Positions 8,690 to 54,852 of a stretch of DNA of 64,000 nt are shown here, one piece after another; within the stretch, counting starts at the first letter, position 1, and each line of letters begins with the position of its first letter. The notes beneath the pieces are model-generated. The model ran no database searches. It was not told where the DNA came from and saw nothing but the letters and a program-made list of their open reading frames with translations. The stretch is from Scleropages formosus (lineage: Eukaryota), in the NCBI RefSeq assembly GCF_900964775.1, contig NC_041806.1:16454297-16518296 (forward strand). Reading direction: 5' to 3'. Made by a program: the position numbers and the translations under genes.

Positions 8690-9960
8690 ACAGACAACCT
8701 GTGATCAACTATCTGAATTTCTCACCCAGAATCATCTCCTCAACGGATAAAAGTCTGGATTTAAAGCTGGACATTCCACCGAGACGGCACTCCTGGTGGT
8801 GTCCTATGCTCTCTAGTCGGCTAGAGCAGTCTCCTTCTCCTTGGTCCTCGTCCTCCTCAACCTGTTTGTAGCATTTGACACTGTCAACCACCCGATTCTA
8901 CTCTCCTCTGTTGATCAGCTTGGCATCAAAGGAACAGCACTAAAATGGTTTGAGTCCTACCAGTCAGAGAGATCCTATGAAGTGGTCTGGCTCAGCTCCC
9001 GTTCTTCTCCTTTGCCTCTCTCAACTGGTATCCCGCAGGGCTCGGTACTGGGCCCTCTACTCTTCTCAACCTACACCTCTTCCTTCGGCCCTGTCATCGC
9101 CTCCCATGAATTCAACTGCCACTGCTACGCCAATGATACCCAGCTCTTCCTCTCATCACCACCTGGAGCATTAAACATTTCTGCGCGCACCACTGCCTGC
9201 CGGTTGGACATCTCTGCATGGATGTCTGATCACCGCTTACAAATCAACCTCTCCAAAACAGAGATCCTTCACCTCCCAGCTGTCCTGTCTTCCTGTTAAG
9301 AACTCTGGACAAGCTGGACAACTCACTCATTTTACCTACCTCCTTGGCTAAGAGTGTAGAAGTGATGATTGGTTTTTCTCAGCACATTGAAGCCACAACC
9401 CGGACCTGCAGATACATCCTGCATAACATCTGCAGGATCTATCCTTACCTCACAACAGACTCTGAGCAACCACTTGTCCAGGCCATGGTGATATCCCGCC
9501 TGGACTAGTGCAACTCTCTCCTGTCTGGCCTTCCTGCTACTGCCATCAAACCTCTACAGCTGATATGGAATGCTGCTGCCCAAGTTGTTTTTGACTTGCT
9601 GGAGTGTTCCCATGTATCTCCTGTACTTGTTTCTCTGCACTGGCTTCCCATAGCTGCCCAGACCAAATTGAAGACTCTGGTTATAGCCTACAAAAGCATC
9701 AGTGGAACTGCTCCCAGCTATCTACAAGACTTGATCATCCACCACACCCCAGCCAGACCCCTCTTCCCACATGGTGGTCCCACACTGTCATGGATGAGGG
9801 CGGGAGGCCGAGGAGTTGCTGTGGACCCAATTGCGGGTTTGTTTATTATGGGAACAAACAAGGGACAAGCAAGGATTGCAGTCAGGGATAGGCGTGGGTC
9901 GTTCAAGGTGCAGACATTGTTCTTGGGACGAGATGGGAATCCAAGTTGATCAGGCAAAGC
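8690..9960 (+). mobile_element. LINE (non-LTR) ORF2 fragment: reverse transcriptase plus conserved C-terminal tail
   Basis: ORFs carry RT motifs: ...GFRPGHSTETALLVV (about 8760-8810), VLVLLNLFVAFDTVNH, GIPQGSVLGPLLF, YANDTQLFLS. The downstream ORF has LHWLPIAAQTKLKTLVIAYKSISGTAPSYLQDLI, typical of fish L2/CR1-like tails. It is broken by frameshifts. Confidence 0.75.
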
Positions 9961-10497
9961 AGGAGATCTGTAACTGGGAAGGCACCAAAAAGGGAACGAG
10001 GGACAAAGGACAAAGAGGGACTGGAGGGACTGGAAGGACAGGGAGGTAAGTGGGGATCTTTCACTATCGCAGGAGAAGTGGGTTGACTGAATGAGGTTCC
10101 ATAACCAGGTGAGTCAACATGGCATCTTTTATACCCTGCTGCTCTGATTCAGGGCAGGTGTGGTCATTTGGCTTGAGAGCATGGGCATGACACACCCACA
10201 AAAGTTCCAAAACCAAAAGCACAAAGGTTTTCAGTTCTGGCTCTAATGTGGTGGAATGATGTCCCCCTCTCACTCAGAACTGCTGAATCCCTGTCCACAT
10301 TTAAAAAGGGTCTTAAAAACTCACCTCTTCCAGATTCACTTAAGTTCATGCTCAAGGTTACAGAGATCATAATTGTTGAACAACGGATAAACCTTCATGC
10401 AACTACTCCTGTTATATAAATGTTTATAAATCTTAAAAAAAGAAAAAATTACTATAAAGGTGATCAGAAATCGTCAATATTTGGATAAAGTTTTATA

Positions 10498-41247: not shown

Positions 41248-41657
41248 CTTAAAGGGAAAGACAGAAGAGTGAGGGGCTAGGTGATGTGGGCAGAAAATCT
41301 GAATGACCACACTCATTGAGGTGGTTTACTATATACCCGAACATCCTGTCTAAGCCTTGAAGGAAAACATTTATTCAAAATGTGTTTTCAGCCAAAAGGG
41401 AAGCAATAAATAGCTGATGCAATTTAACAAAGAGAAGTGCAAATCTAATTTGTCACAAAGACTATATACTGTTTAAAATTGTAGTGAAGTAAAAAATGTT
41501 ATTACCTACGTAGGCTGGGATGATTAAAATTGAGGTCCTACAACATGTGTGTAACAGCCAGGAATTTCTGTACTGAATAAACAAACAGCTGCAACACAGC
41601 TTGATAACTGCATAAAAATGAAAAACTAAAACCACATAATTAGGTAGGGTAAAGTAC

Positions 41658-41728
41658 CTTTCCTAATTTAGCAGTGCATTCTGAGTCAACTGGAGCCTTT
41701 CCCTTCATCACCATGGTCTTAACTACTT
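41658..41728 (-). CDS. parp2: PARP2 coding exon 3
   Basis: Acceptor tgtgatgtacag| then (E)VVKTMVMKGKAPVDSECTAKLGK. Human has SESVKALLLKGKAPVDPECTAKVGK. Donor AAG|GTACTT. Confidence 0.8.
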
Positions 41729-42015
41729 CTGTACATCACAAAAGACAAACAACAATTGACAAAATAAAATAAATCATTCATTCACATCCATTTGTCCTAA
41801 TGAGGGACTGCAGTGGTCTGGAGTATATCCCAGAAAAACAGGGTGTGGGACAACAGTTCATCACAGTTCAACATGCAACTATAAGCCCAGTAATAGAATG
41901 TCTACATGCCTTTACATTATAACAGACTGTAATGTTGTGCAGCACTGTGACATAATGGTAGTGTTCCCTCTGTCTACTACATACTGCACGTGGTCAACAA
42001 GAAGGCAGCGCTCAC

Positions 42016-42132
42016 CTTTGTCATCCTCTTCATCACTCTGAGCTTCCCTGCTCTCCTTCTGGCTCGTCCCTCCACCCCTCTTCTTCTTGGCAACTGGCTG
42101 CTCTTCCTTGATGTTGTTCACTTCAGCACTCT
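42016..42132 (-). CDS. parp2: PARP2 coding exon 2 (basic/acidic N-terminal region; copy 1 of the duplicated exon)
   Basis: Acceptor cccaatgtag| then (E)SAEVNNIKEEQPVAKKKRGGGTSQKESREAQSDEEDDK + g. Donor AAG|GTGAGC. Confidence 0.7.
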
Positions 42133-43110
42133 CTACATTGGGAACAATGATTTTAATCATTATAAACTGAGAAACACAGCTTTCCCCTCACATTATTCCA
42201 AATTGAGGGCCCAGAAGCACATTTTACCAGCAGCCCTGTCATTTTTACAAGTAAATAAATACACACATGTGTGTATGTATATGTATATATATATAGATAC
42301 AAATTAAATTGATATTAAATGCCATAGTAAGAGCGATATATGTCTTACGATGGCATTTGGCATCCAGATCATGATTTCACTTGGTTTTACTTAAAAGTTA
42401 AAGACAAATGACAGAGGAGAAGGAGGAAGTGTAAACAGCTGCCTGACCAAAAACACTGAGCCTTCTGGCCCTACACACAGGTCTGGTTTTTGGGTGATCT
42501 CATAAACAAAAGCCTAAGTCAGTCTCACTCCCCACCCATACAGATCAGAAGAATAGAATAAAACAGGACGACGAGGCAATTCCATTTTCTTATAAAATAA
42601 AACTGCACAGAAGTGGTTCTGAATTCAGTCAAATGACAAAGAAGTTTTTAACTTTTAATGTGAAAACGATCTTGGGCGGAGAAACTAAGATACAGTAGAC
42701 TTCTGGAAAACAATATGAATATCAATTTCATTACAATGATCTTGGTTGGGGGGAAATAAGTACAGTATGACCTCAGCCGGGCAAAATGACATTTTAAATG
42801 TGGCTGGACTTGTATCTAAGACGCGTTCAAGAGCTATTAACATGTAGGTTTTCGCTGATTCCCAGGAGTGCTGACAACATTTACTTATTTATTATTTCTG
42901 TAAAAAACCTATCAGTCGTGTCACAGCTTGTCCTCCTCAGACCGGAATTTGGACTCGTGAATTTCTGAGAACATCATCATGTCGGGCAAAAAATGGGCGG
43001 TAACACAGACTAACTTTCACCATGGCATGTACACAAAATATTAATCTGAAATCGCTTGTTAAGTTGCGAAAAAATGAGAGAAGGTAAGAGAAGAAACGCG
43101 GGTTCCGGGT

Positions 43111-43136
43111 AAAAAAAAAAAAAAAAAAAAAAAAAA
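43111..43136 (+). repeat. Poly-A tract (26 nt); this is poly-T on the PARP2 sense strand inside intron 1
   Basis: gggt + A26 + catg. Confidence 0.9.
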
Positions 43137-43149
43137 CATGGAAACACAC

Positions 43150-43207
43150 CTGACTGCTCATCCGCAACATTTTTGGGTTGGGTGCGAGAACTTCTCGTGC
43201 GTCTCAT
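43150..43207 (-). CDS. parp2: PARP2 coding exon 1 (start codon)
   Basis: Minus-strand aaaATGa start, then MRRTRSSRTQPKNVADEQS + g, donor CAG|GTGTGT. Phase 1 matches the 2-nt start of the next exon. A basic N-terminus is as in human PARP2 (MAARRRRS...). Three CCAAT boxes lie 175-265 bp upstream on the same strand. Confidence 0.55.
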
Positions 43208-43369: not shown

Positions 43370-43480
43370 TCTCGGACATGATTGGTGAGAGTCTCTGTCA
43401 CGCTCTACATCCTTCACTCTGATTGGTTGATAGAGAAACAGTCGTTGGTTTGATGGTACCTAAACTTTTGATTGGACGCC
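43370..43480 (-). promoter_or_regulatory. parp2: Putative PARP2 core promoter with three CCAAT (NF-Y) boxes
   Basis: ATTGG on the + strand at 43381-85, 43422-26 and 43471-75 equals CCAAT on the PARP2 sense strand, 175-265 bp upstream of the ATG at 43207. No TATA box is obvious. Confidence 0.5.
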
Positions 43481-46400
43481 GTTTGTTCGTGTGCTTTCGC
43501 GACCCACGGAGAAACACACTTTGTAGTCTTTTAGACTATGACTGTGTATATCGCTTTGTTCTGGACACGTCTGTGTGAAAAATATAAAGAAAGCCAGTCA
43601 CATCATCACTGACTAGGTTTTAAAATTGAATGTCGCGTACGATACGGTGCGTAAATGAATAAACGTAACTGCACTGTGACTAGCACTCTCGTTTGACGTA
43701 TTTTCGCTAACATTAACTTAAGCATAAAATTAATGATTAATTTACATCATGCCATTGCCAATTGCAGTTGCACGTAAAAGAAATACAGCAGTTGTAAGTG
43801 TTGGTTAATATGGGGCGGATTTTATCCAACTTTGGCTTGAGATGTGGTCGCATGGACATGACATGCCACATTCGACAAATCGCAATCGCTGTGTTTCCCT
43901 TAGGACGAGAGAGGCTATTAAATTGTTCTTTGAAAATTGCATTGTGTGTGTGCACAGATTAGTGAGTAAACCCGTTCAGGAAAATAACGGTTCTAATGAC
44001 AGAGGAGAAAACGTATTTAAATGTAATAAATGATTTATTCATTTAGCAAACGCTTTTCGCCAAAGCGACGTACATCTCATAGAGAATACAATATGTGCAT
44101 TCTTCTCTATTCATTTTTGTAGAATTTTTGGAAGTAGTTACGTGGGATTTTCCCAGTGATGATGCACAAACATACACCACATTTCTGACAGGAGATAGTT
44201 GTCTGTCCATCTGGGCAGAACCTGCACCTTCCCTTGTCAGTAAAAACTGGGAAGTGATCCACTTAATCATAGCGGACAGCATCTATGGGTCTTGGGGTTG
44301 TTGGTCTTTGGAGGAATCTGGTGGGCACATCCGCCTCCCTTCCCTTGGAGGGCCTTCCTTTCTTCTTTCCAGCGTTGATAAGTGCATCCGCAACCTCCAG
44401 TCTGAACATCTCGAGCTTTTTCTGCTTTTGCACATCAAGAGACAAGAAGAAACAAGGAAACGCGGGGTCTTTTGTATTGTGGGCAGACAGACCGAACACT
44501 ATCGAAAAGCAGTATTACAAGCAATTACGGACCGAAGTTAGCTGGTTAGCTTGTTACCTTCAGTAAATATCACGACCATACACAATAGGTTTGTGTTTTT
44601 CATGTTGCATCAATATTATTGCTTTATAGTCTGTTGATATTACTAGTTAATGTTTGGATGTTCTACACTAAAATTATTACGGATTGCACCTTTAAGAGAT
44701 TTTTTTTCAAAATTGCACATTTAAGTGTCCCTCAGTAAAAGCACGGTCACTTAAATCACTTGGCTTTTTCGGACTTTCAATCAATCTCCTCAGTAGAGCT
44801 ATCCTCACTCGCTGACTCCCTCTCTCCGTGCTGTCTGACAATGATTTCCTCATCTTCATCATTGAAGTCTGAATCTGAAGAGCTTGCAGGGGTCTCCTCT
44901 ATCACTCTCATCCTGTCTGTCATTCCTCTACTCACCTTTCTTTTGCCATAAATTGAGCTAACTGTGATGCAGGAAAATGTATGGTTATACTGTTATAATG
45001 TATAGAATTTTTTTTGGAGTTAATATTAACATGTCTTCCTGTTTGAAACTAAATTTTAAATACTAAAAATTGACCAACTTTCTACCCCTAATCTGGCAAC
45101 ATATCTTGGGGGATACATAGATTTCTGAATAACACCACAAACAGCATTAGAGCATTTTTTTCTTCATCAGCATATTAAGACAATAGTCAATTATTTCATG
45201 AATTTATAGTGTTGCTTTATTGAAAATAAATATGATTAATATGTAATTACCACCTGGTCAGCATGTCCTGCACCACTGGTGGCTATGATGATTTCTGATC
45301 AGGCTGACTAAGCGATGACAGATAACCTGAACCAAGTCATGTGACCTACATACAAATACCAGACAAGACTTTTAATGAATGATAACTTGATTGGGTGAAA
45401 ACATTCAATCAAGTCCCCTACAGGATGTTAAAGAGTCTGTATCTCCTGGTGCATGTTGACTGTTCAAGGGTTTAAAACTGATCCCACAAAACGTGCGAGA
45501 GCCAGGAATTTCACATGTACTGAAGAAATAAACAGAAGCAACAAAACTGGGTTACCATGATATAAAAGAAAACTAAAAAGCACACAACTAATGCCATAAG
45601 GCTAAATGGCTGAGTAAAGCATGTTCAGTTTTTGGGACACCTGAGGTCAACTGAGAACAATAACTCCAATGGAGAGAAATTCAACCTCCAGCTCCAACAC
45701 CATTCCACAGATGTTGCCCCTGGGACATCAAGACAGGTGGAACAAATTACCTTTCCTAATTTAGCAGTGCATTCTGAGTCAACTGGAGCTTTTCTTTTCA
45801 TCACCATGGTCTTAGCTACTTCTGTACATCATAAAACACAAACAATTAACAAAAATTCAGTCATACATACATTCATTCATTTCCTAATACAGGATTGCAG
45901 TGGTCTGGAGTCTATTCCCAAAGCACCAGATACAAGGCAGGGTACACCCTGGATGGGACACCAGACCATCAGAGTGCAACACACAGTCAGCAAACAAGAA
46001 ACGAGATGTTCAGGTAGTTTATATTAAAATAGACTGTACAACCAATCCCTAGAAGAAGAAAATGTCCTGGTATAGTTCCCAATAAGTATGTTGTATACAA
46101 CATATTGTACCACTTCCTCTGTTTACCAGTTGTTGCATGGAGTCTACAAAACTCAGTGTTCAGCTGTGTTATCCTCTTCATCACTGGGTGCTTTTCTCCT
46201 CACCTTCTGGCTCTTCTCTGCACCCTGCTTCTTCTTGGCAACCAGCTGCTCTTCCTGCTCCTCCTTGACACTATTCACTTCACCACTCTCTGTAGGGGAA
46301 TAATGTTTGTAATCATTCTATACAGGCAGCTTTCTTCCTCACATCATCTTATACTGCGGGTCCCAAAAGTGTAAGCACATTTTATAACCAGCAGTGTGGA

Positions 46401-47110
46401 AATGCTCTGAGTATGTGGTACTTGAGCAGCAACTTGACATGTAGTACCATTTTCTTAGATGTGGTCAACAAGAAGGCAGCGCTCACCTTTGTTATCCTCT
46501 TCATCACTCAGAACTTCTCTGCTCTCCTCCTGGCTCTTCCCTCCACCCCTCTTCTTCTTGGCTATGGGCTGCTCATCCTGCTCCTCCTTGACCTTGTTGA
46601 CTTCAGCACTTGCTGCAGGGAGAACAATATTTTTAATCATTCCAAACTGTGCTTTCCCCTGAACACAACTTTCACTTCAGATTATTAATTTATTATTATT
46701 AAAATCAGAGCCCAGATCAGATGTGCAAATACGTTTTTATCACCAGCACCCTCGAGTATATGCTCTTTTGCGGTCGTTTGCGCTATTATTACACACATGA
46801 TTTTACCGAATCCCAAAAAAGCAAGTAAGTGTAAATACCTGCCTATGGAAAAATACTTTGCTTTCATGCTCCACAGACAACTAGTCGGTTAGATTTACCA
46901 TATTTACTCTAATGTAACTAACTCGCATTTTCCCCCCCTAAATTCAAGTTTAAAAATCGGGGTGCGAGATATATGCGGGAATTTTCGGAAACTAAAGTTT
47001 TTCAGGAAAAAATGAAATGGATATTTATATTTTATTTCATAAAAATATTTATAATACGTTTTATTATTTTGTAATTGCGAGCATGATGGTGCATCGCTGT
47101 TTTTCCCTCC

Positions 47111-47698
47111 TCAAGTTGTGGGCACCATCACGCTTTTTTCACCTTTTTCTGTTTTTGTTTGGTGCAGCATGTCGAAATTGAGGGGTGTTTGATCGGCATT
47201 GGCTATTAGTATTTGCGATAACATATAGCTATTGCTCTTCCTAAGTTGAATCACATCCATCACTTTATCCTCGAAATCTTTCGGCACTCTTTGGGAAAGG
47301 GATGTCCTCCGACGAAGGGAAAGACTTTTCCTCTTCATGAATCTCGTGATCCAACCTTGGCTCACTTTCAGATCTGTGCGACTGATGCCTCGTTTTGTAG
47401 CTAACTCGCGCGCTTTTAAATGTAACATTTCGTGCGAAACACAGCAACCATCTTTACGCAAACCTAACACATATTCAAATAACTCGTCCTCCAATGCAGG
47501 AAACTTTCCACATTTAGGTCCTCGGAATGCTCTTCTTAACTTATTGGTGTTTTGTAATGCAAGTTTCTGTTTACGCCAATATCGCACATTAAACTCAGTC
47601 ACTGTAAACTCACGCCCTGCTGCTCGATTGCCATGTTTTTCTGCGAAATCAATAACTTTGAGTTTAAAACCAGCACTGTAACTTGAACGTTTGTCCAT
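47111..47698 (-). mobile_element. pogo/Tigger-like transposase N-terminal DNA-binding domains (HTH_psq plus CENP-B-type HTH), truncated
   Basis: ORF MDKRSSYSAGFKLKVIDFAEKHGNRAAGREFTVTEFNVRYWRKQKLAL...LKARELATKRGISRTDLKVSQGWITRFMKRKSLSLRRRTS stops after 195 aa. No DDE domain follows. Confidence 0.6.
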
Positions 47699-48424
47699 AG
47701 TTCAAGCAAAAACTACCGGTAATTTACAAGACTTGAGATACGTTACGAACAATGTTTCACGAATGACCAATGAATGAGAAGTGATCTTAACGCGAAACGC
47801 ACAGCAATGGGCCGCTACGCATATGATTGGTGCGGTATTAACAAAAGATTGCGCGACTCAAGGCAAGCCGACGATTGTTTAAATGCTGATTCTCTTTAAC
47901 CGAATTCCAAAATATTTGAAACTGCCGTAACAACATTGATTATTCATTCCTTACAGTTTTAAACTTTTTTCATGTGCGAGGTATATGCGAAACTTTTTAA
48001 TATCTTTTATAGTAAAGTTATTGGGGTGAGAAATATACGCAACGGTGAGTTCTATTAGCGTGAATACGGTAATTTAAACAGAGGGAAAAAGTATGAGGGG
48101 CACAGTGGGCGAAATGTGGCTCCACTTCTTCATAAATACACTAGACTAGTACTCAAAGAGTTATTTTAGTTGCATTTGAAGAACTATTATTCTATGTAGG
48201 TGTGTACTGATTTCAGGACTGCTACCGAAGAACACAATACTGTAACAGGATAACACATGGTGCTGTTCTTTTGCACATACGGAGGAGGGTCACCCATCAT
48301 AACAACTGTGCACCTCGCCAACAATTAACGAGACCAATTTCGACCTGTGTAAAATTAAGTTAGACAAGTAATAAGGCTAAGCCTCCACATCATTCATGTG
48401 CAAAATACCGCTGCAGCCTATAAA

Positions 48425-48655
48425 ATACACACACACACACACACATCTTCAGAACCGCTTGTCCCTTACGGGGTCACGGGGAACCGGAGCCTACCCGGCA
48501 ACACAGGGCGTAAGGCCAGAGGGGGAAGGGGACACACCCAGGACGGGACGCCAGTCCGCCACAAGGCACCCCAAGCGGGACTTGAACCCCAGACCCACCG
48601 GAGAGCAGGACTGCGGTCCAACCCACTGCGCCACCGCACCCCGCCTATAAAATAT
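48425..48655 (-). repeat. SINE family A copy (minus orientation) with (CA)n
   Basis: Reverse complement of the family A consensus: cgcttgtcccttacggggtcacggggaaccggagcctacccggcaacacagggcgtaaggcc...gggactcgaaccccagacccaccggagagcaggactgcggtcc. Confidence 0.8.
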
Positions 48656-48877
48656 TATTGTATATTCTACCGTCATATAAAGTGCAGTACCATAAAGAAA
48701 AATGTATCACAGTACAGCACTCAAGTCTTATATTTTATCCGTTAAAATTGTTTGGGTATTACATTACACTGTGCCGAGTCGGACGCGTTTAATCGACGGA
48801 ACAACTTCCGGGTAGGGTCGCATGGTTTTTCCCCCAACAGCAAGTGCTGTATCTTTTAGTGCAAGAGATCAGAAGAG

Positions 48878-48953
48878 ATGAACATGGCAGCGTTTTGGAG
48901 TCGTCACTGCGGCGTGTATGTGCTGTGTCAGTCAGCGAGGGCGATGTGCACAG
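48878..48953 (+). CDS. mettl17: METTL17 (Rsm22 family) tentative coding exon 1 with a mitochondrial-presequence-like N-terminus
   Basis: ATG then MNMAAFWSRHCGVYVLCQSARAMCT + g, followed by a consensus donor CAG|GTGAGT. The peptide is Arg-rich with no acidic residues. Phase 1 fits the alternative acceptor chosen for exon 2. A CpG-rich region with an ETS-like cttccggg lies just upstream (48770-48870). No homology is detectable for this short presequence. Confidence 0.4.
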
Positions 48954-49147
48954 TGAGTGAAGGAGGAATTTCGGGGACAGCGCTCGTCTCGCCGTCGTTG
49001 GCGACTTTGAATTTGATTCTCTCTCACTTTGTTTTAAAAAAGATGAATGATTATCTTCAATCTTGAATCAACTTGATCGGAAGACTGCTACGCTATACCA
49101 AATAAAGACTCACGAGGTCAACAGTTATGAGACATATTTGCAAGATG

Positions 49148-49429
49148 TTAAGAAGAACAACTAAGAAAATAGGACAAAGGCAAAAAGTTGAATAAATTAA
49201 TAAATACAGTGATGTATTGATACAGTATCAATCTAATAATGCAGCCATGCCATGGCATGATACACATACCTTGTCTTCCTTCCCTGAACTGGCGGTGCCA
49301 GGCGAACACGGCGGTGGCGCTCAGTGCCTGCTCTCCGTGCGCCCGGCGTAACATCTCCAGTGTTTCAGCTGCCGATTTACCGAGAAGCTCACAGAATTTA
49401 ATATTGGCTCGCTGCTCAAAAGTCGACAT
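49148..49429 (-). mobile_element. mariner-like transposase N-terminal (HTH_48) fragment in METTL17 intron 1
   Basis: ORF MSTFEQRANIKFCELLGKSAAETLEMLRRAHGEQALSATAVFAWHRQFREGRQ matches the mariner N-terminus (M..EQRA.IKFC.KLGKSA.ET...L..A.G..ALS...VF.WH..F..GRE). Confidence 0.6.
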
Positions 49430-50326
49430 TTTTGCTCCGCCTTTGCGCTACGCACACTGTTCATTGGCGTCGACTGAACGATGTCCTAAGGTCCGTCCAG
49501 CTTGTCCCCCGCTCCCTGCGGAGCAAGAGCCCACAAGTTAATGAAAGTGGGCCACCCGCTGCTTCGTGGTATAGACACCGTTGTTTTACCGTAGGTTGTT
49601 TTGTTTCTAAAAGAGTGGAAGGAGAGTAGTCTGAATTGGGTTCTGGAGGCGTGTCCCCAGCTCACACATCGCACTCATTCGCCAGCCGCGAGTGTTTCCA
49701 AGTTAGCGAGACCGCATCCACCGAACAGTACCTTCATTGTACCGTACGGCTTCTCCTGCTAAGGAACTCGTCGTAACCCGTGTTTTCTGTGCGCTCGCTC
49801 ACCCATGTCAGGTGATGCCCTGCTAGGGCAGCCATTGGCTCTTTTCTCAGACCTTCCCCGAGGTGATTGGTAGAGTGACTAGGCACTCAGCATGTGACCT
49901 CTACAGTGAGCTTCCTTCCGCTCCGTAGAATGGAGTCATTTGAAACGCTAATATACCACCGTAATCGTCCTAGCGTTTTAGTGTATGGTTTGCACTTTTA
50001 ACTCCTTTAAATAGTGATTTCTTGTAGTCCTTGCTAAATAGAACTGATTACAGCTGAACTGTATCCAGTTGGTAATCTATTATAACTTAAAAAAATCCGT
50101 TAAGAATGCGATCTACCGTCATGCTAATATATGTTAATTTCTCAACAGCGATTGGTTAAGACGAATATTCCCACCCTTATTTTGTATTATCTCGTCATAT
50201 ATATGTATAAGCATATATACAATAAATATGAAAACTATTTCATAGACATGTAACAATACAGGGGAAATTCTTTATTTTTATATTCTAAATTTATTTCACA
50301 TAATATATAAAAACTACCCATCCAGA

Positions 50327-50432
<106 letters not shown>

Positions 50433-50968
50433 AAAAACTATATACTTGATGCCTACATCTACAGGCTTGCTGTATACATCCACCCAGTACACATTGCTGA
50501 ATATACAGCACTAAGAATTCGTATATGAAAACATAATTGTATGTAGAATGTTTTTCTGACTGCCACAACCCTGCTTTACCATAAGTAGTTACTGATAGTG
50601 ACTCAGTTGTAATATCTGCGGTATTAAATAAATTGTTTATGTTTTTATTTGGTGCCAGAATTTCAAATTAATATCCTGCTAATTGTTTAAATTCAGTTAG
50701 GGTAAGAAATGTATAAAAACCAAGTTCAGCATACTCCTAATAACATTAGTTTGAAAAGTTTAGTTGTCAAAAAAAATGCTATTGTAAAATTGAGGTATTT
50801 TCAGCATTACCAAATTTCTACCATTTGAAGTTTTCTTATTTGTACTTTTCTTAAAACACAGTGTAGGTGTACCATTGATGTCATTAAAATTCCTGTGTCC
50901 CAAAGTGTGGCTTTGGAAAACACCTGTAACCATGTAGCCTGATCTCCGCTAGGGCCACGGCACCGCAG

Positions 50969-51094
50969 CTGCCGCTGGAGCACCAGCAGACTTCCTGCAA
51001 GGCGCCTCCTACAAGAAGCACCCTGGAGTGACTGCCCTGAAGACAGTGCGCTTACCTGAAGATTTGCAGAGAGGGGCTTTGTCTGTCATTCATG
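50969..51094 (+). CDS. mettl17: METTL17 coding exon 2
   Basis: (A)AAGAPADFLQGASYKKHPGVTALKTVRLPEDLQRGALSVIH + g. Human has [31 protein letters not shown]. Donor ATG|GTGAGG is solid. The acceptor is uncertain: caccgcag| (AG 50967-68) is chosen for phase continuity with exon 1. An in-frame stop at 50950-52 caps any extension further upstream. Confidence 0.55.
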
Positions 51095-51460
51095 GTGAGG
51101 CAGCAGCATGAATTATTAATAATCTTTATTTAGCTGACCTCTTTGACCAGGGTGCCCTACATGTTTACAGTGATTTACCCATCTATAGAGCAGGATGTTC
51201 TCACTGGAGCAGTTCAGGGTTAAGTACGTCGATAAAAGGAAGCACAGTAAAAGCTGGGTCTTGAACTAGGAACCCTGAGGATGCAAAATGACAGCCCTAA
51301 ACACTCTGTTTTTTTTTGCCCATAATGTCCATGTTATTGATTGTCCCATCCAAGAATCAGTACAGTGAACACTGACCCACTGAGTGCTATCAAAGGTTGT
51401 GGTGATCAATGCTGTCAGTATGAGCAGTAAATATGCATGTGTGTGAAAAGGTTTTTAAAG

Positions 51461-51682
51461 CACTGATATGTCATATGGAAGCTGACAGCAGTGCAGGGAT
51501 TCACTACTGCTGTGGGCTTTCTCCTCGTAAAGGGGCAGCCTTGAGGGAGCTCCCTGAACGGGCACGGAGACTCAGCAACTTCCTGTGGAGCCGAAAGAGG
51601 GCAACTGATGAAGCGGCTCTGAGGAAGAAGGCTCTCGATCTGGAGAAAAGGCTCCTGGAGCAGGAAGTAGAAAAGGGAGGAG
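51461..51682 (+). CDS. mettl17: METTL17 coding exon 3
   Basis: (A)LICHMEADSSAGIHYCCGLSPRKGAALRELPERARRLSNFLWSRKRATDEAALRKKALDLEKRLLEQEVEKGGG + g. Human has [31 protein letters not shown]. Donor GAG|GTGAGG. The acceptor tttttaaag| has a weak polypyrimidine tract and an alternative AG exists at about 51530. Confidence 0.6.
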
Positions 51683-51784
51683 GTGAGGACTGAGAGGTAT
51701 GCAGAACATGGAGGAATAATAGGAGAATGGTGAAGCATACAACAATTCCCATAAGAATAGTGTAAGAATACTAAGCTATGAATG

Positions 51785-51995
51785 CACGCACACTGCCTGA
51801 AATCTCTTGTCCCAAATGGGGTCACGGCAAGCCAGAGCCTAACCTGGCAACACAGGGCATAAGGCTGGAGGGGGAGGGGACGCACCCAGGATGGGATGCT
51901 AGTCCGTCACAAGGCACCCCAAGCGGGACTCAAACCCCAGACCCCCGAGAGAGCAGGCACAGGCCAAACCCGCTACACCACTGTACCCTCTCTAA
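51785..51995 (-). repeat. SINE family A copy (minus orientation) in METTL17 intron 3
   Basis: ctcttgtcccaaatggggtcacggcaagccagagcctaacctggcaacacagggcataaggctggagg...caagcgggactcaaaccccagaccc. Confidence 0.75.
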
Positions 51996-52468
51996 AGTAT
52001 GAATATGTAGGATGAATATTTAAAGTATGTCTATTTTAATGTACTCAGGAAGTCAGCCAACATGTCTTCCCAGCTCTTCTGCTGCACCTGTCAGGGACGT
52101 AGGACCATAGTGGGTTTACGTTTCTGCCCAGTTTGTCCCTTGAAATTATTGCCCAGGTTTCAATGGCAACTTAATATGTGACATTTATACAGCTGGGTAG
52201 TTTAACTGGAGTAATTCTAAGTAAGTGCAGCAATTAAGACTACTACAAGAATGAGGCCTGAACTCACACTGTTTAGGTTACAAGTCCATGTCTTTAAATG
52301 ATAAGCTGCCTGTTGTACACACATACACTCACACATGCACGCACTCACACACGCAATCTCGACATAAGTGGAAAATCACTTGCTGTACTTGTAAAGCATC
52401 CAAAAATGTCAACTGATCTTCATGTCATTGAGGTCTACAGAAAATTTACGGCTTTTTCATCTTTTTAG

Positions 52469-54636: not shown

Positions 54637-54852
54637 GAGGGGATGCGGTGGCGCAGTGGGTTGGACCGCAGTCCTGCTCTTTGGTGGGTCTGGGGTTTGA
54701 GTCCCGCTTGGGGTGCCTTGCGACGGACTGGCGTCCCGTCCTGGGTGTGTCCCCTTCCCCCTCCGGCCTTACGCCCTGTGTTGCCGGGTAGGCTCCGGTT
54801 TCCTGTGACCCCGTGAGGGACAAGCGGTTCTGAAAATGTGTGTGTGTGTGTA
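54637..54852 (+). repeat. tRNA-derived SINE family A copy with (GT)n tail, in METTL17 intron 7
   Basis: Near-identical to 10498-10718 (ggatgcggtggcgcagtgggttggaccgcagtcctgctctttggtgggtctggggtttgagtcccgcttggggtgcc...). Confidence 0.8.

Follow-up and report, generated by a model that had tools for sequence, protein, structure and literature searches.

A partial duplicate of the PARP2 5' coding exons upstream of the arowana PARP2 promoter and its probable use in alternative transcripts

The stretch of DNA analyzed here, referred to below as the window, comprises 64,000 nt of contig NC_041806.1 from the arowana Scleropages formosus and contains the complete PARP2 gene together with a 1.2-kb block, upstream of the PARP2 promoter, in which a part of the same gene is repeated. 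The gene occupies the minus strand from ~43207 to 35877; it was located with a human PARP2 sequence that served as a search probe only, and the hand-spliced gene model is 100% identical over 559 aa to RefSeq PARP2 isoform X1 (P0001, XP_018613580.1). All exons of the gene and all of their copies described below lie on this strand. The coding part of canonical exon 1 (43207-43150), starting with the ATG at 43207, encodes MRRTRSSRTQPKNVADEQS followed by G, and is preceded by a CCAAT-box promoter at ~43380-43478 of the minus strand; both elements show conservation with Arapaima gigas (positions 9943-10278 of the Arapaima locus, L001). They are followed by canonical exon 2 (42132-42016, 117 nt, phase 1-1), exon 3 (41728-41658, 71 nt, phase 1-0), and exon 4 (41247-41197, 51 nt, encoding AHVYNEGDDIYDVMLNQ), of which exons 2 and 3 are the sources of the upstream copies. 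Exon 4 is skipped in RefSeq isoform X2 (P0123) and in the UniProt model P0125; this omission of 51 nt is in frame and removes the conserved AHVYNEGDDIYDVMLNQ segment immediately before the WGR domain. It is also worth mentioning that a run of about 30 T residues directly after exon 1 (43114-43137, in intron 1) corresponds to an N-gap in an older assembly.

The duplicated block (45472-46686, minus strand) was matched by self-BLAST to 41524-42233 of the gene in four colinear high-scoring segment pairs on the same strand, extending from the tail of intron 1 through the head of intron 3 with identities of 71-84%: 41990-42197 with 46461-46686 (79.6%, 226 nt, E 9e-55), 41967-42233 with 46116-46394 (71.1%, 287 nt, E 1e-33), 41651-41831 with 45744-45918 (83.6%, 183 nt, E 7e-50), and 41524-41631 with 45472-45578 (75.2%, E 7e-12). 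The order within the block is a module with an intron-1 tail, the far exon-2 copy, and an intron-2 head, followed by a module with an intron-1 tail, the middle exon-2 copy, intron 2, the exon-3 copy, and an intron-3 head, so that the exon-2 module is present twice; its two upstream versions are 79.3% identical to one another (46142-46318 versus 46464-46642). No further block-like sequence was found by BLAST elsewhere in the window. A first-pass annotation of this DNA, made from the letters alone, had described two copies of exon 2 and one of exon 3 in the same orientation as the gene, with homologous flanking introns, and had proposed a BLASTN comparison of the canonical exons 2 and 3 with the upstream region; the copies, all of the quoted peptides, the canonical exon coordinates, and the intron homology were found as described, as was the position of the copies 2.5-3.4 kb upstream of the ATG and the CCAAT boxes. 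The word tandem, applied there to the whole arrangement, suits the two exon-2 modules with respect to each other but not the block: between it and its source there are the promoter, exon 1, and a distance of about 4 kb.

Because the intron sequence flanking each exon was copied too, the block is a DNA-level partial duplication of the PARP2 5' coding part. Its 3' breakpoint lies near 45472, at the end of an intron-3-like tail (45472-45750, minus strand). Within this tail about 130 nt (45696-45568) align to Arapaima intron 3 (L001 12084-12209) and are deleted from the canonical arowana gene, while 45590-45472 matches canonical 41642-41524. At the other end, a weak colinear match to intron 1 (46879-46824 versus 42479-42424, 71%, E 1e-4) suggests a 5' limit nearer 46880. 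Fragments of a short interspersed element (SINE) tail are present both in PARP2 intron 2 (~41800-41870) and in its copy (~45890-45960), and that insertion therefore predates the duplication.

The three copied exons differ in their state of preservation. The far exon-2 copy (46612-46487, 126 nt, phase 1-1) has retained both its acceptor (ctccctgcag/CA, the slash marking the exon border) and its donor (AAAG/gtgagc), is 87% identical to canonical exon 2, and encodes (A)SAEVNKVKEEQDEQPIAKKKRGGGKSQEESREVLSDEEDNK; its splice sites and open frame had been recognized earlier, but with limits of 46491-46610 that have to be replaced. The exon-3 copy (45821-45751, 71 nt, phase 1-0) encodes (E)VAKTMVMKRKAPVDSECTAKLGK and is likewise intact, with a tacag/AA acceptor and an AAG/gtaatt donor, as had been stated for an interval (45741-45811) that turned out to be shifted by 10 nt. 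In both of these copies the splice sites are equal to or better than the canonical ones, and their in-frame joins to the downstream exons were confirmed by translation. The middle exon-2 copy (46289-46164), by contrast to these intact exons, is a dead pseudo-exon: its donor has been mutated to ACAG/ctgaac, and read-through reaches an in-frame TGA at 46154-46152, in agreement with the loss of the donor and the stop noted at first pass. Its basic motif KKKR has been changed to KKKQ. This dead copy has also gained a consensus-like internal donor, CAGAAG/GTGAGG (46202-46204), which, if used, would yield an 86-nt exon of phase 1-0 in frame with exon 4. The phase argument made at first pass, that the use of all copies in one transcript would break the reading frame, is correct. 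Canonical exon 2 lacks 9 nt encoding EEQ, one unit of an EEQ-EEQ repeat; because this unit is kept in both upstream copies and in Arapaima, it is the canonical exon that was altered, at a time when the copies already existed.

The two intact copies recur in RefSeq proteins. Four RefSeq isoforms belong to the 90%-identity cluster of isoform X1. Isoform X3 (XP_018613582.1 and XP_018613583.1, 496 aa), with the N-terminus MVMKRKAPVDSECTAKLGK/AHVY, begins with MVMKRK, as does the reading of the exon-3 copy, while canonical exon 3 has MVMKGK; since R is present where the canonical exon has G, X3 uses the upstream copy, with 45821-45751 spliced straight to exon 4 and the start at a Met inside the copy. 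Isoform X4 (XP_018613584.1, P0122, 608 aa) uses the far exon-2 copy, for which canonical exon 3 serves as the acceptor. Its first coding exon (47338-47143, minus strand, 196 nt, MKRKSLSLRRR...HQTKTEK) ends in phase 1 at the donor AAAAAG/gtgaaa, and translation of 47338-47143 joined to 46612-46487, 41728-41658, and 41247-41197 gives the X4 N-terminus residue for residue; the phases fit exactly, with 196 nt ending in phase 1, 126 nt of phase 1-1, and 71 nt of phase 1-0. Residues 1-65 of X4 map to 47338-47143, inside a truncated transposase open reading frame (ORF) of the pogo/Tigger type (47698-47111, minus strand, 195 aa; Pfam HTH_Tnp_Tc5, E 2.5e-13, and BrkDBD, E 1.4e-8), which consists of the N-terminal DNA-binding part only and lacks the DDE domain. 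This transposon-derived exon had no place in the first-pass account. No modelled transcript contains a copy together with its original, only one or the other, and no listed RefSeq isoform joins the far exon-2 copy to the exon-3 copy. The copies, described earlier as lying upstream of the gene, are indeed upstream of the canonical promoter, but the RefSeq models place them within the span of the gene, after an alternative start. The NCBI pipeline keeps an alternative variant only if it is wholly supported by one long alignment or by RNA-seq from a single sample (PMC5737279), and because this rule demands full support the introns of X3 and X4 are probably backed by reads. A literature search combining PARP2 and Scleropages found no paper on the locus; the isoforms are already in RefSeq, and their origin by duplication appears undescribed.

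At the far end of the spacer that holds the duplicate and the transposon pieces there is a nuclear RNase P RNA gene (49614-49922, minus strand; Rfam RF00009, 214.5 bits), and the same interval was compared in other fishes. Its orthologues are located on the same strand as PARP2 in Arapaima (L001 9029-9339, plus strand) and in Anguilla rostrata (locus L003, 8640-8949, plus strand). Arapaima has one exon 2 and one exon 3, its RNase P RNA gene is ~0.9 kb from the PARP2 ATG, and no similar copy was found in the 10 kb upstream of PARP2; in Anguilla the exons are also single and the RNase P RNA gene is ~1.05 kb upstream of PARP2. The comparison with other teleost loci, recommended at first pass, thus gave two loci without the block, and the spacer between the RNase P RNA gene and PARP2, ~1 kb in both, measures 6.4 kb in the arowana. 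Judged against these two outgroups, the duplicate is specific to the arowana lineage.

The history of the block appears to be composite. With Arapaima as the outgroup, the canonical and far exon-2 modules share nine derived sites, as opposed to two and two for the other groupings. Simple tandem duplication within the block was considered as the origin of both upstream exon-2 modules and rejected, as the far module groups with the canonical one, and a second event or gene conversion is therefore needed. Kimura two-parameter (K2P) distances for the exon-2 module, computed over ~210 aligned columns, are 0.17 between the canonical and far versions, 0.30 between canonical and middle, 0.32 between far and middle, and 0.32 between canonical and Arapaima; for the tail of intron 2 they are 0.47 (canonical and copy), 0.485 (canonical and Arapaima), and 0.43 (copy and Arapaima). 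By these distances the middle exon-2 module and the exon-3 module form an old duplicate, about as diverged from the canonical gene as its Arapaima orthologue, and because neither outgroup carries it, this duplicate most likely arose early on the arowana branch. The far exon-2 module, about half as diverged, would be either a later copy made from the canonical exon or a module overwritten by gene conversion from that exon; in the conversion variant a local tandem copy of the middle module would have come first. Just past the donor, the intron next to the far copy is identical over 27 nt to that next to the canonical exon, a match that is missing in Arapaima and that hints at conversion.

Several origins other than a partial duplication of the kind described can be weighed against the structure of the block. 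A false extra copy produced by a collapsed or misjoined haplotype is extremely improbable, given that the copies differ from their source by 16-29%, far above allelic variation; moreover, the independent assembly JARO02005011.1 (locus L002), whose gaps are elsewhere, is colinear without rearrangement from 47384 to 39795 and differs from the window only by Ns and in the length of the poly-T run, and the duplication is therefore not an assembly artefact, an explanation effectively refuted by these two results. Descent of the upstream exons from a retrotransposed PARP2 mRNA or from a different PARP paralogue is equally improbable: sequences of introns 1, 2, and 3 were copied alongside the exons and are kept between and around them, which refutes such an origin, the copies carry both arowana-specific and Arapaima-shared PARP2 states, and their best matches are PARP2's own exons, so that their descent from PARP2 itself, assumed at first pass, holds. 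A more serious candidate, possible though doubtful, is that the block is the remnant of a larger tandem duplication that included the spacer, the promoter, and exons 1-3 and reached into intron 3, after which the second promoter, exon 1, and most of intron 1 were lost through deletion and transposon insertion; the alternative to it is a small dispersed insertion of ~0.9 kb. Local duplication most often takes place in tandem, the copies are in the same orientation as the gene, the 3' breakpoint at ~45472 falls within intron 3, and the intron-1 homology of the far copy weakly reaches ~46880, where it ends at transposon-derived sequence. However, a relaxed BLAST search of 46687-52000 with 45471-42234, sensitive as it was, detected neither another promoter nor another exon 1 farther upstream, only the weak colinear intron-1 match, while other duplicated intron sequence of equal age remains detectable.

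The exon-3 copy differs from canonical exon 3 at four of 71 positions, compared with 35 of 112 in its immediate flanks (Fisher's test, p 1.6e-5); the identity of these flanks ranges from 77% (BLAST, local) to 66-70% (MAFFT) and is quoted as a range because the three-taxon MAFFT alignment of the diverged introns is noisy. Neutral decay of the copy alone predicts 9-14 differences, with a probability of four or fewer of 0.058-0.002. All four changes occurred on the copy lineage, two synonymous and two nonsynonymous, and all of them are within the first 29 nt, the rest being an identical run of 42 nt (permutation p 0.0002) with no synonymous change, in which Arapaima has three. The explanation we prefer, and consider probable, is that the block is a lineage-specific, DNA-level partial duplicate of PARP2 in which the middle copy is dead and the other two serve as alternative 5' exons, so that the choice offered at first pass between decaying exons and an alternative cassette comes out as both. 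According to the rival explanation, which is unlikely, every copy is an inert relic in decay that is not spliced productively; the RefSeq isoforms would then stem from noise in splicing, from read-through on rare occasions, or from the extension of gene models, and occasional conversion from the canonical exons 4 kb away would keep the exon-3 copy and the 3' end of the far exon-2 copy similar to their sources. A number of results weigh against the preferred explanation and, for the most part, speak for relics. The conservation of the exon-3 copy, concentrated as it is in the 42-nt run, fits gene conversion no worse than purifying selection, with a slight lean to conversion for the run itself. 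For the far exon-2 copy, conservation does not exceed that of the flanks (15 of 117 versus 17 of 96 differences, p 0.34), this copy shares the 27-nt intronic stretch with the canonical gene, and the middle copy is plainly dead. The intactness of the copied exons was rejected as a proof of selection after a neutral simulation in which each exon stayed intact with a probability of 0.29-0.67 and both with ~0.15-0.25. A protein search with copy-specific peptides returned 16 distant PARP2 fragments and no transcript-derived protein carrying the copies, whose use is known here from the RefSeq models only; we infer from the NCBI rule on full support that the transcripts are made. The exact start of X4 is less certain than its introns, and because Gnomon can extend partial models ab initio to obtain a start codon (PMC5737279), the ATG at 47338 and the coding transposon exon are the weakest part. 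Intron distances of 0.4-0.5 approach saturation, which leaves the age estimate rough; in age the old duplicate is indistinguishable from the arowana/Arapaima split. On the other hand, the relic explanation has to accommodate the NCBI rule on full support in the face of three RefSeq proteins that use the copies, the quality of the splice sites in both used copies, and the small number of changes in the exon-3 copy. At the opposite extreme, the cassette may be a selected functional module, a second, transposon-promoted entry into PARP2 that gives X4 and X3, perhaps in a tissue-specific manner, and that has been kept since about the time of the arowana/Arapaima split, which is on the order of 100 million years old (a rough figure); such a module may compensate for the loss of the WWE exon, which is present in most other teleost PARP2 genes and is described below. 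We regard this stronger claim as quite improbable.

Under the preferred explanation, a partial duplicate with two exons that are probably in use, the arowana spacer would have grown from ~1 kb to 6.4 kb by gaining the PARP2 duplicate and several transposon fragments, in at least two steps: an old copy comprising the middle exon-2 and exon-3 modules, and later the far exon-2 module or its conversion. The far exon-2 and exon-3 copies would then serve transcripts starting upstream of the canonical promoter. In X4 a pogo/Tigger-type first exon would be joined to the far exon-2 copy and canonical exon 3, so that the N-terminus is swapped while a KKKR-type basic motif is kept; in X3 the exon-3 copy would be joined to exon 4, giving a PARP2 without the N-terminal region. 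This region of PARP2 is disordered and carries nuclear (NLS) and nucleolar (NoLS) localization signals (PMC11140550). By its position, arowana exon 2 (...PVAKKKRGGG...) presumably corresponds to the NLS/NoLS region, and X4 retains the motif IAKKKRGGGK behind a basic, transposon-derived leader that has kept only the last few (~9) residues of the helix-turn-helix (HTH) domain. The mode of origin, the transcription start, and the consequence for localization are points that we infer.

The arrangement shares features with several known systems. Surveys by Kondrashov and Koonin in 2001 and Letunic et al. in 2002 reportedly describe exon duplication as a source of alternative or mutually exclusive exons. 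As in such classical cases, the arowana copies match their originals in phase and are of near-equal length (126 versus 117 nt and 71 versus 71 nt); unlike in those, they are not adjacent to the originals within one intron, and one of the three is dead. As the originals and their copies have the promoter and exon 1 (43207-43150) between them, this is not a classical tandem exon duplication, and since the copies are upstream of the canonical promoter, the choice between copy and original is tied to alternative transcription start and not to splicing alone. The variable exons of UGT1A and the protocadherins are clusters of alternative first exons that arose by partial duplication of the 5' end. 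There, as in the modelled arowana transcripts, upstream duplicated 5' exons are spliced to shared downstream exons, and varied N-termini are combined with a common catalytic body. The arowana locus differs from these clusters in having only two usable copies, no detected duplicated promoter, and one transposon-derived first exon, and the N-terminal segment concerned is short and disordered, in place of a folded variable domain. The first coding exon modelled for X4, located inside a pogo/Tigger-type ORF with a GT donor within the ORF, resembles transposon exonization; it differs from the usual cases in that only ~9 HTH residues are kept, so that no transposase function is carried over. Both partial self-duplication of 5' exons and transposon exonization are well-known routes to transcript diversity.

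The neighborhood itself also invites comparison. In mammals one bidirectional promoter serves both PARP2 and RPPH1, which are oriented head-to-head (Ame et al. 2001, via PMC11140550). The RNase P RNA gene is the immediate neighbor of PARP2 in arowana, Arapaima, and Anguilla as well, but in all three fishes the RNase P RNA gene is upstream, on the same strand, in a head-to-tail arrangement, and the 6.4-kb arowana spacer makes a shared bidirectional promoter impossible. The linkage of PARP2 and RNase P RNA is thus ancient, while its orientation differs between mammals and these fishes. Further upstream in Anguilla (L003 2791-3044 and 4364-7701) five tRNA genes are present, together with a weak additional match to RNase P RNA (35.9 bits) that may be a pseudogene.

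Apart from the PARP2 duplicate and the pogo/Tigger-type ORF, the extra spacer of the arowana contains an HTH_48 fragment, a tRNA-derived SINE, and further unclassified material. The HTH_48 fragment, of mariner type and Mos1-like (49429-49270, minus strand, E 7e-8), is a short ORF, situated just downstream of the RNase P RNA gene and terminating in a GT donor-like site, and may be either a mariner-type fragment or a small domesticated exon. The tRNA-derived SINE is present in three copies that are 82-94% identical (48431-48642, 51806-51992, and 54637-54851), the third of them inverted; the SINE-tail fragments of PARP2 intron 2 and its copy are related to them. ORF fragments on the minus strand at 44107-44499 and 44777-44935, which show a tail rich in Cys (...CRFCPDGQTTISCQKCGVCLC...) and, at 44777-44935, an acidic stretch, gave the impression of piggyBac-type transposase remnants; as a Pfam scan of the two ORF fragments at 44107-44499 gave no match, this label stays an impression only. 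A compound (CA)n(GA)n microsatellite is present upstream of the RNase P RNA gene, at 50330-50430.

The encoded protein differs from that of other teleosts in another respect. Most teleost PARP2 proteins (~650 aa) carry a WWE domain (PF02825), which in Anguilla is encoded by a separate exon (L003 10849-11058) between exon 1 and the exon-2 equivalent, whereas the PARP2 proteins of arowana, Arapaima, and Paramormyrops are without it. As tblastn with three WWE peptides found no trace of the domain in the window (intron 1, 42133-43149) or in the Arapaima locus (L001 10313-11563), the sequences compared suggest a loss of the WWE exon in Osteoglossomorpha. In a literature search, no description of a WWE domain in fish PARP2 came up.

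For annotation, the duplication explains the odd RefSeq N-termini of arowana PARP2, and cross-mapping to the copies is a risk for reads or primers meant for exons 2 and 3. In other respects it is a structural quirk of a single lineage, a fairly ordinary partial duplication that does not help with any open question of long standing. Provided that the upstream exons are really used, the locus would show N-terminal variants arising through partial self-duplication combined with transposon capture, a compact example of how an alternative 5' end originates. Isoforms X3 and X4 offer natural variants of the NLS- and NoLS-bearing N-terminal region of PARP2 (PMC11140550), and, should the cassette prove to be a selected functional module, it would be a natural experiment on the role of this disordered region in PARP2 localization.

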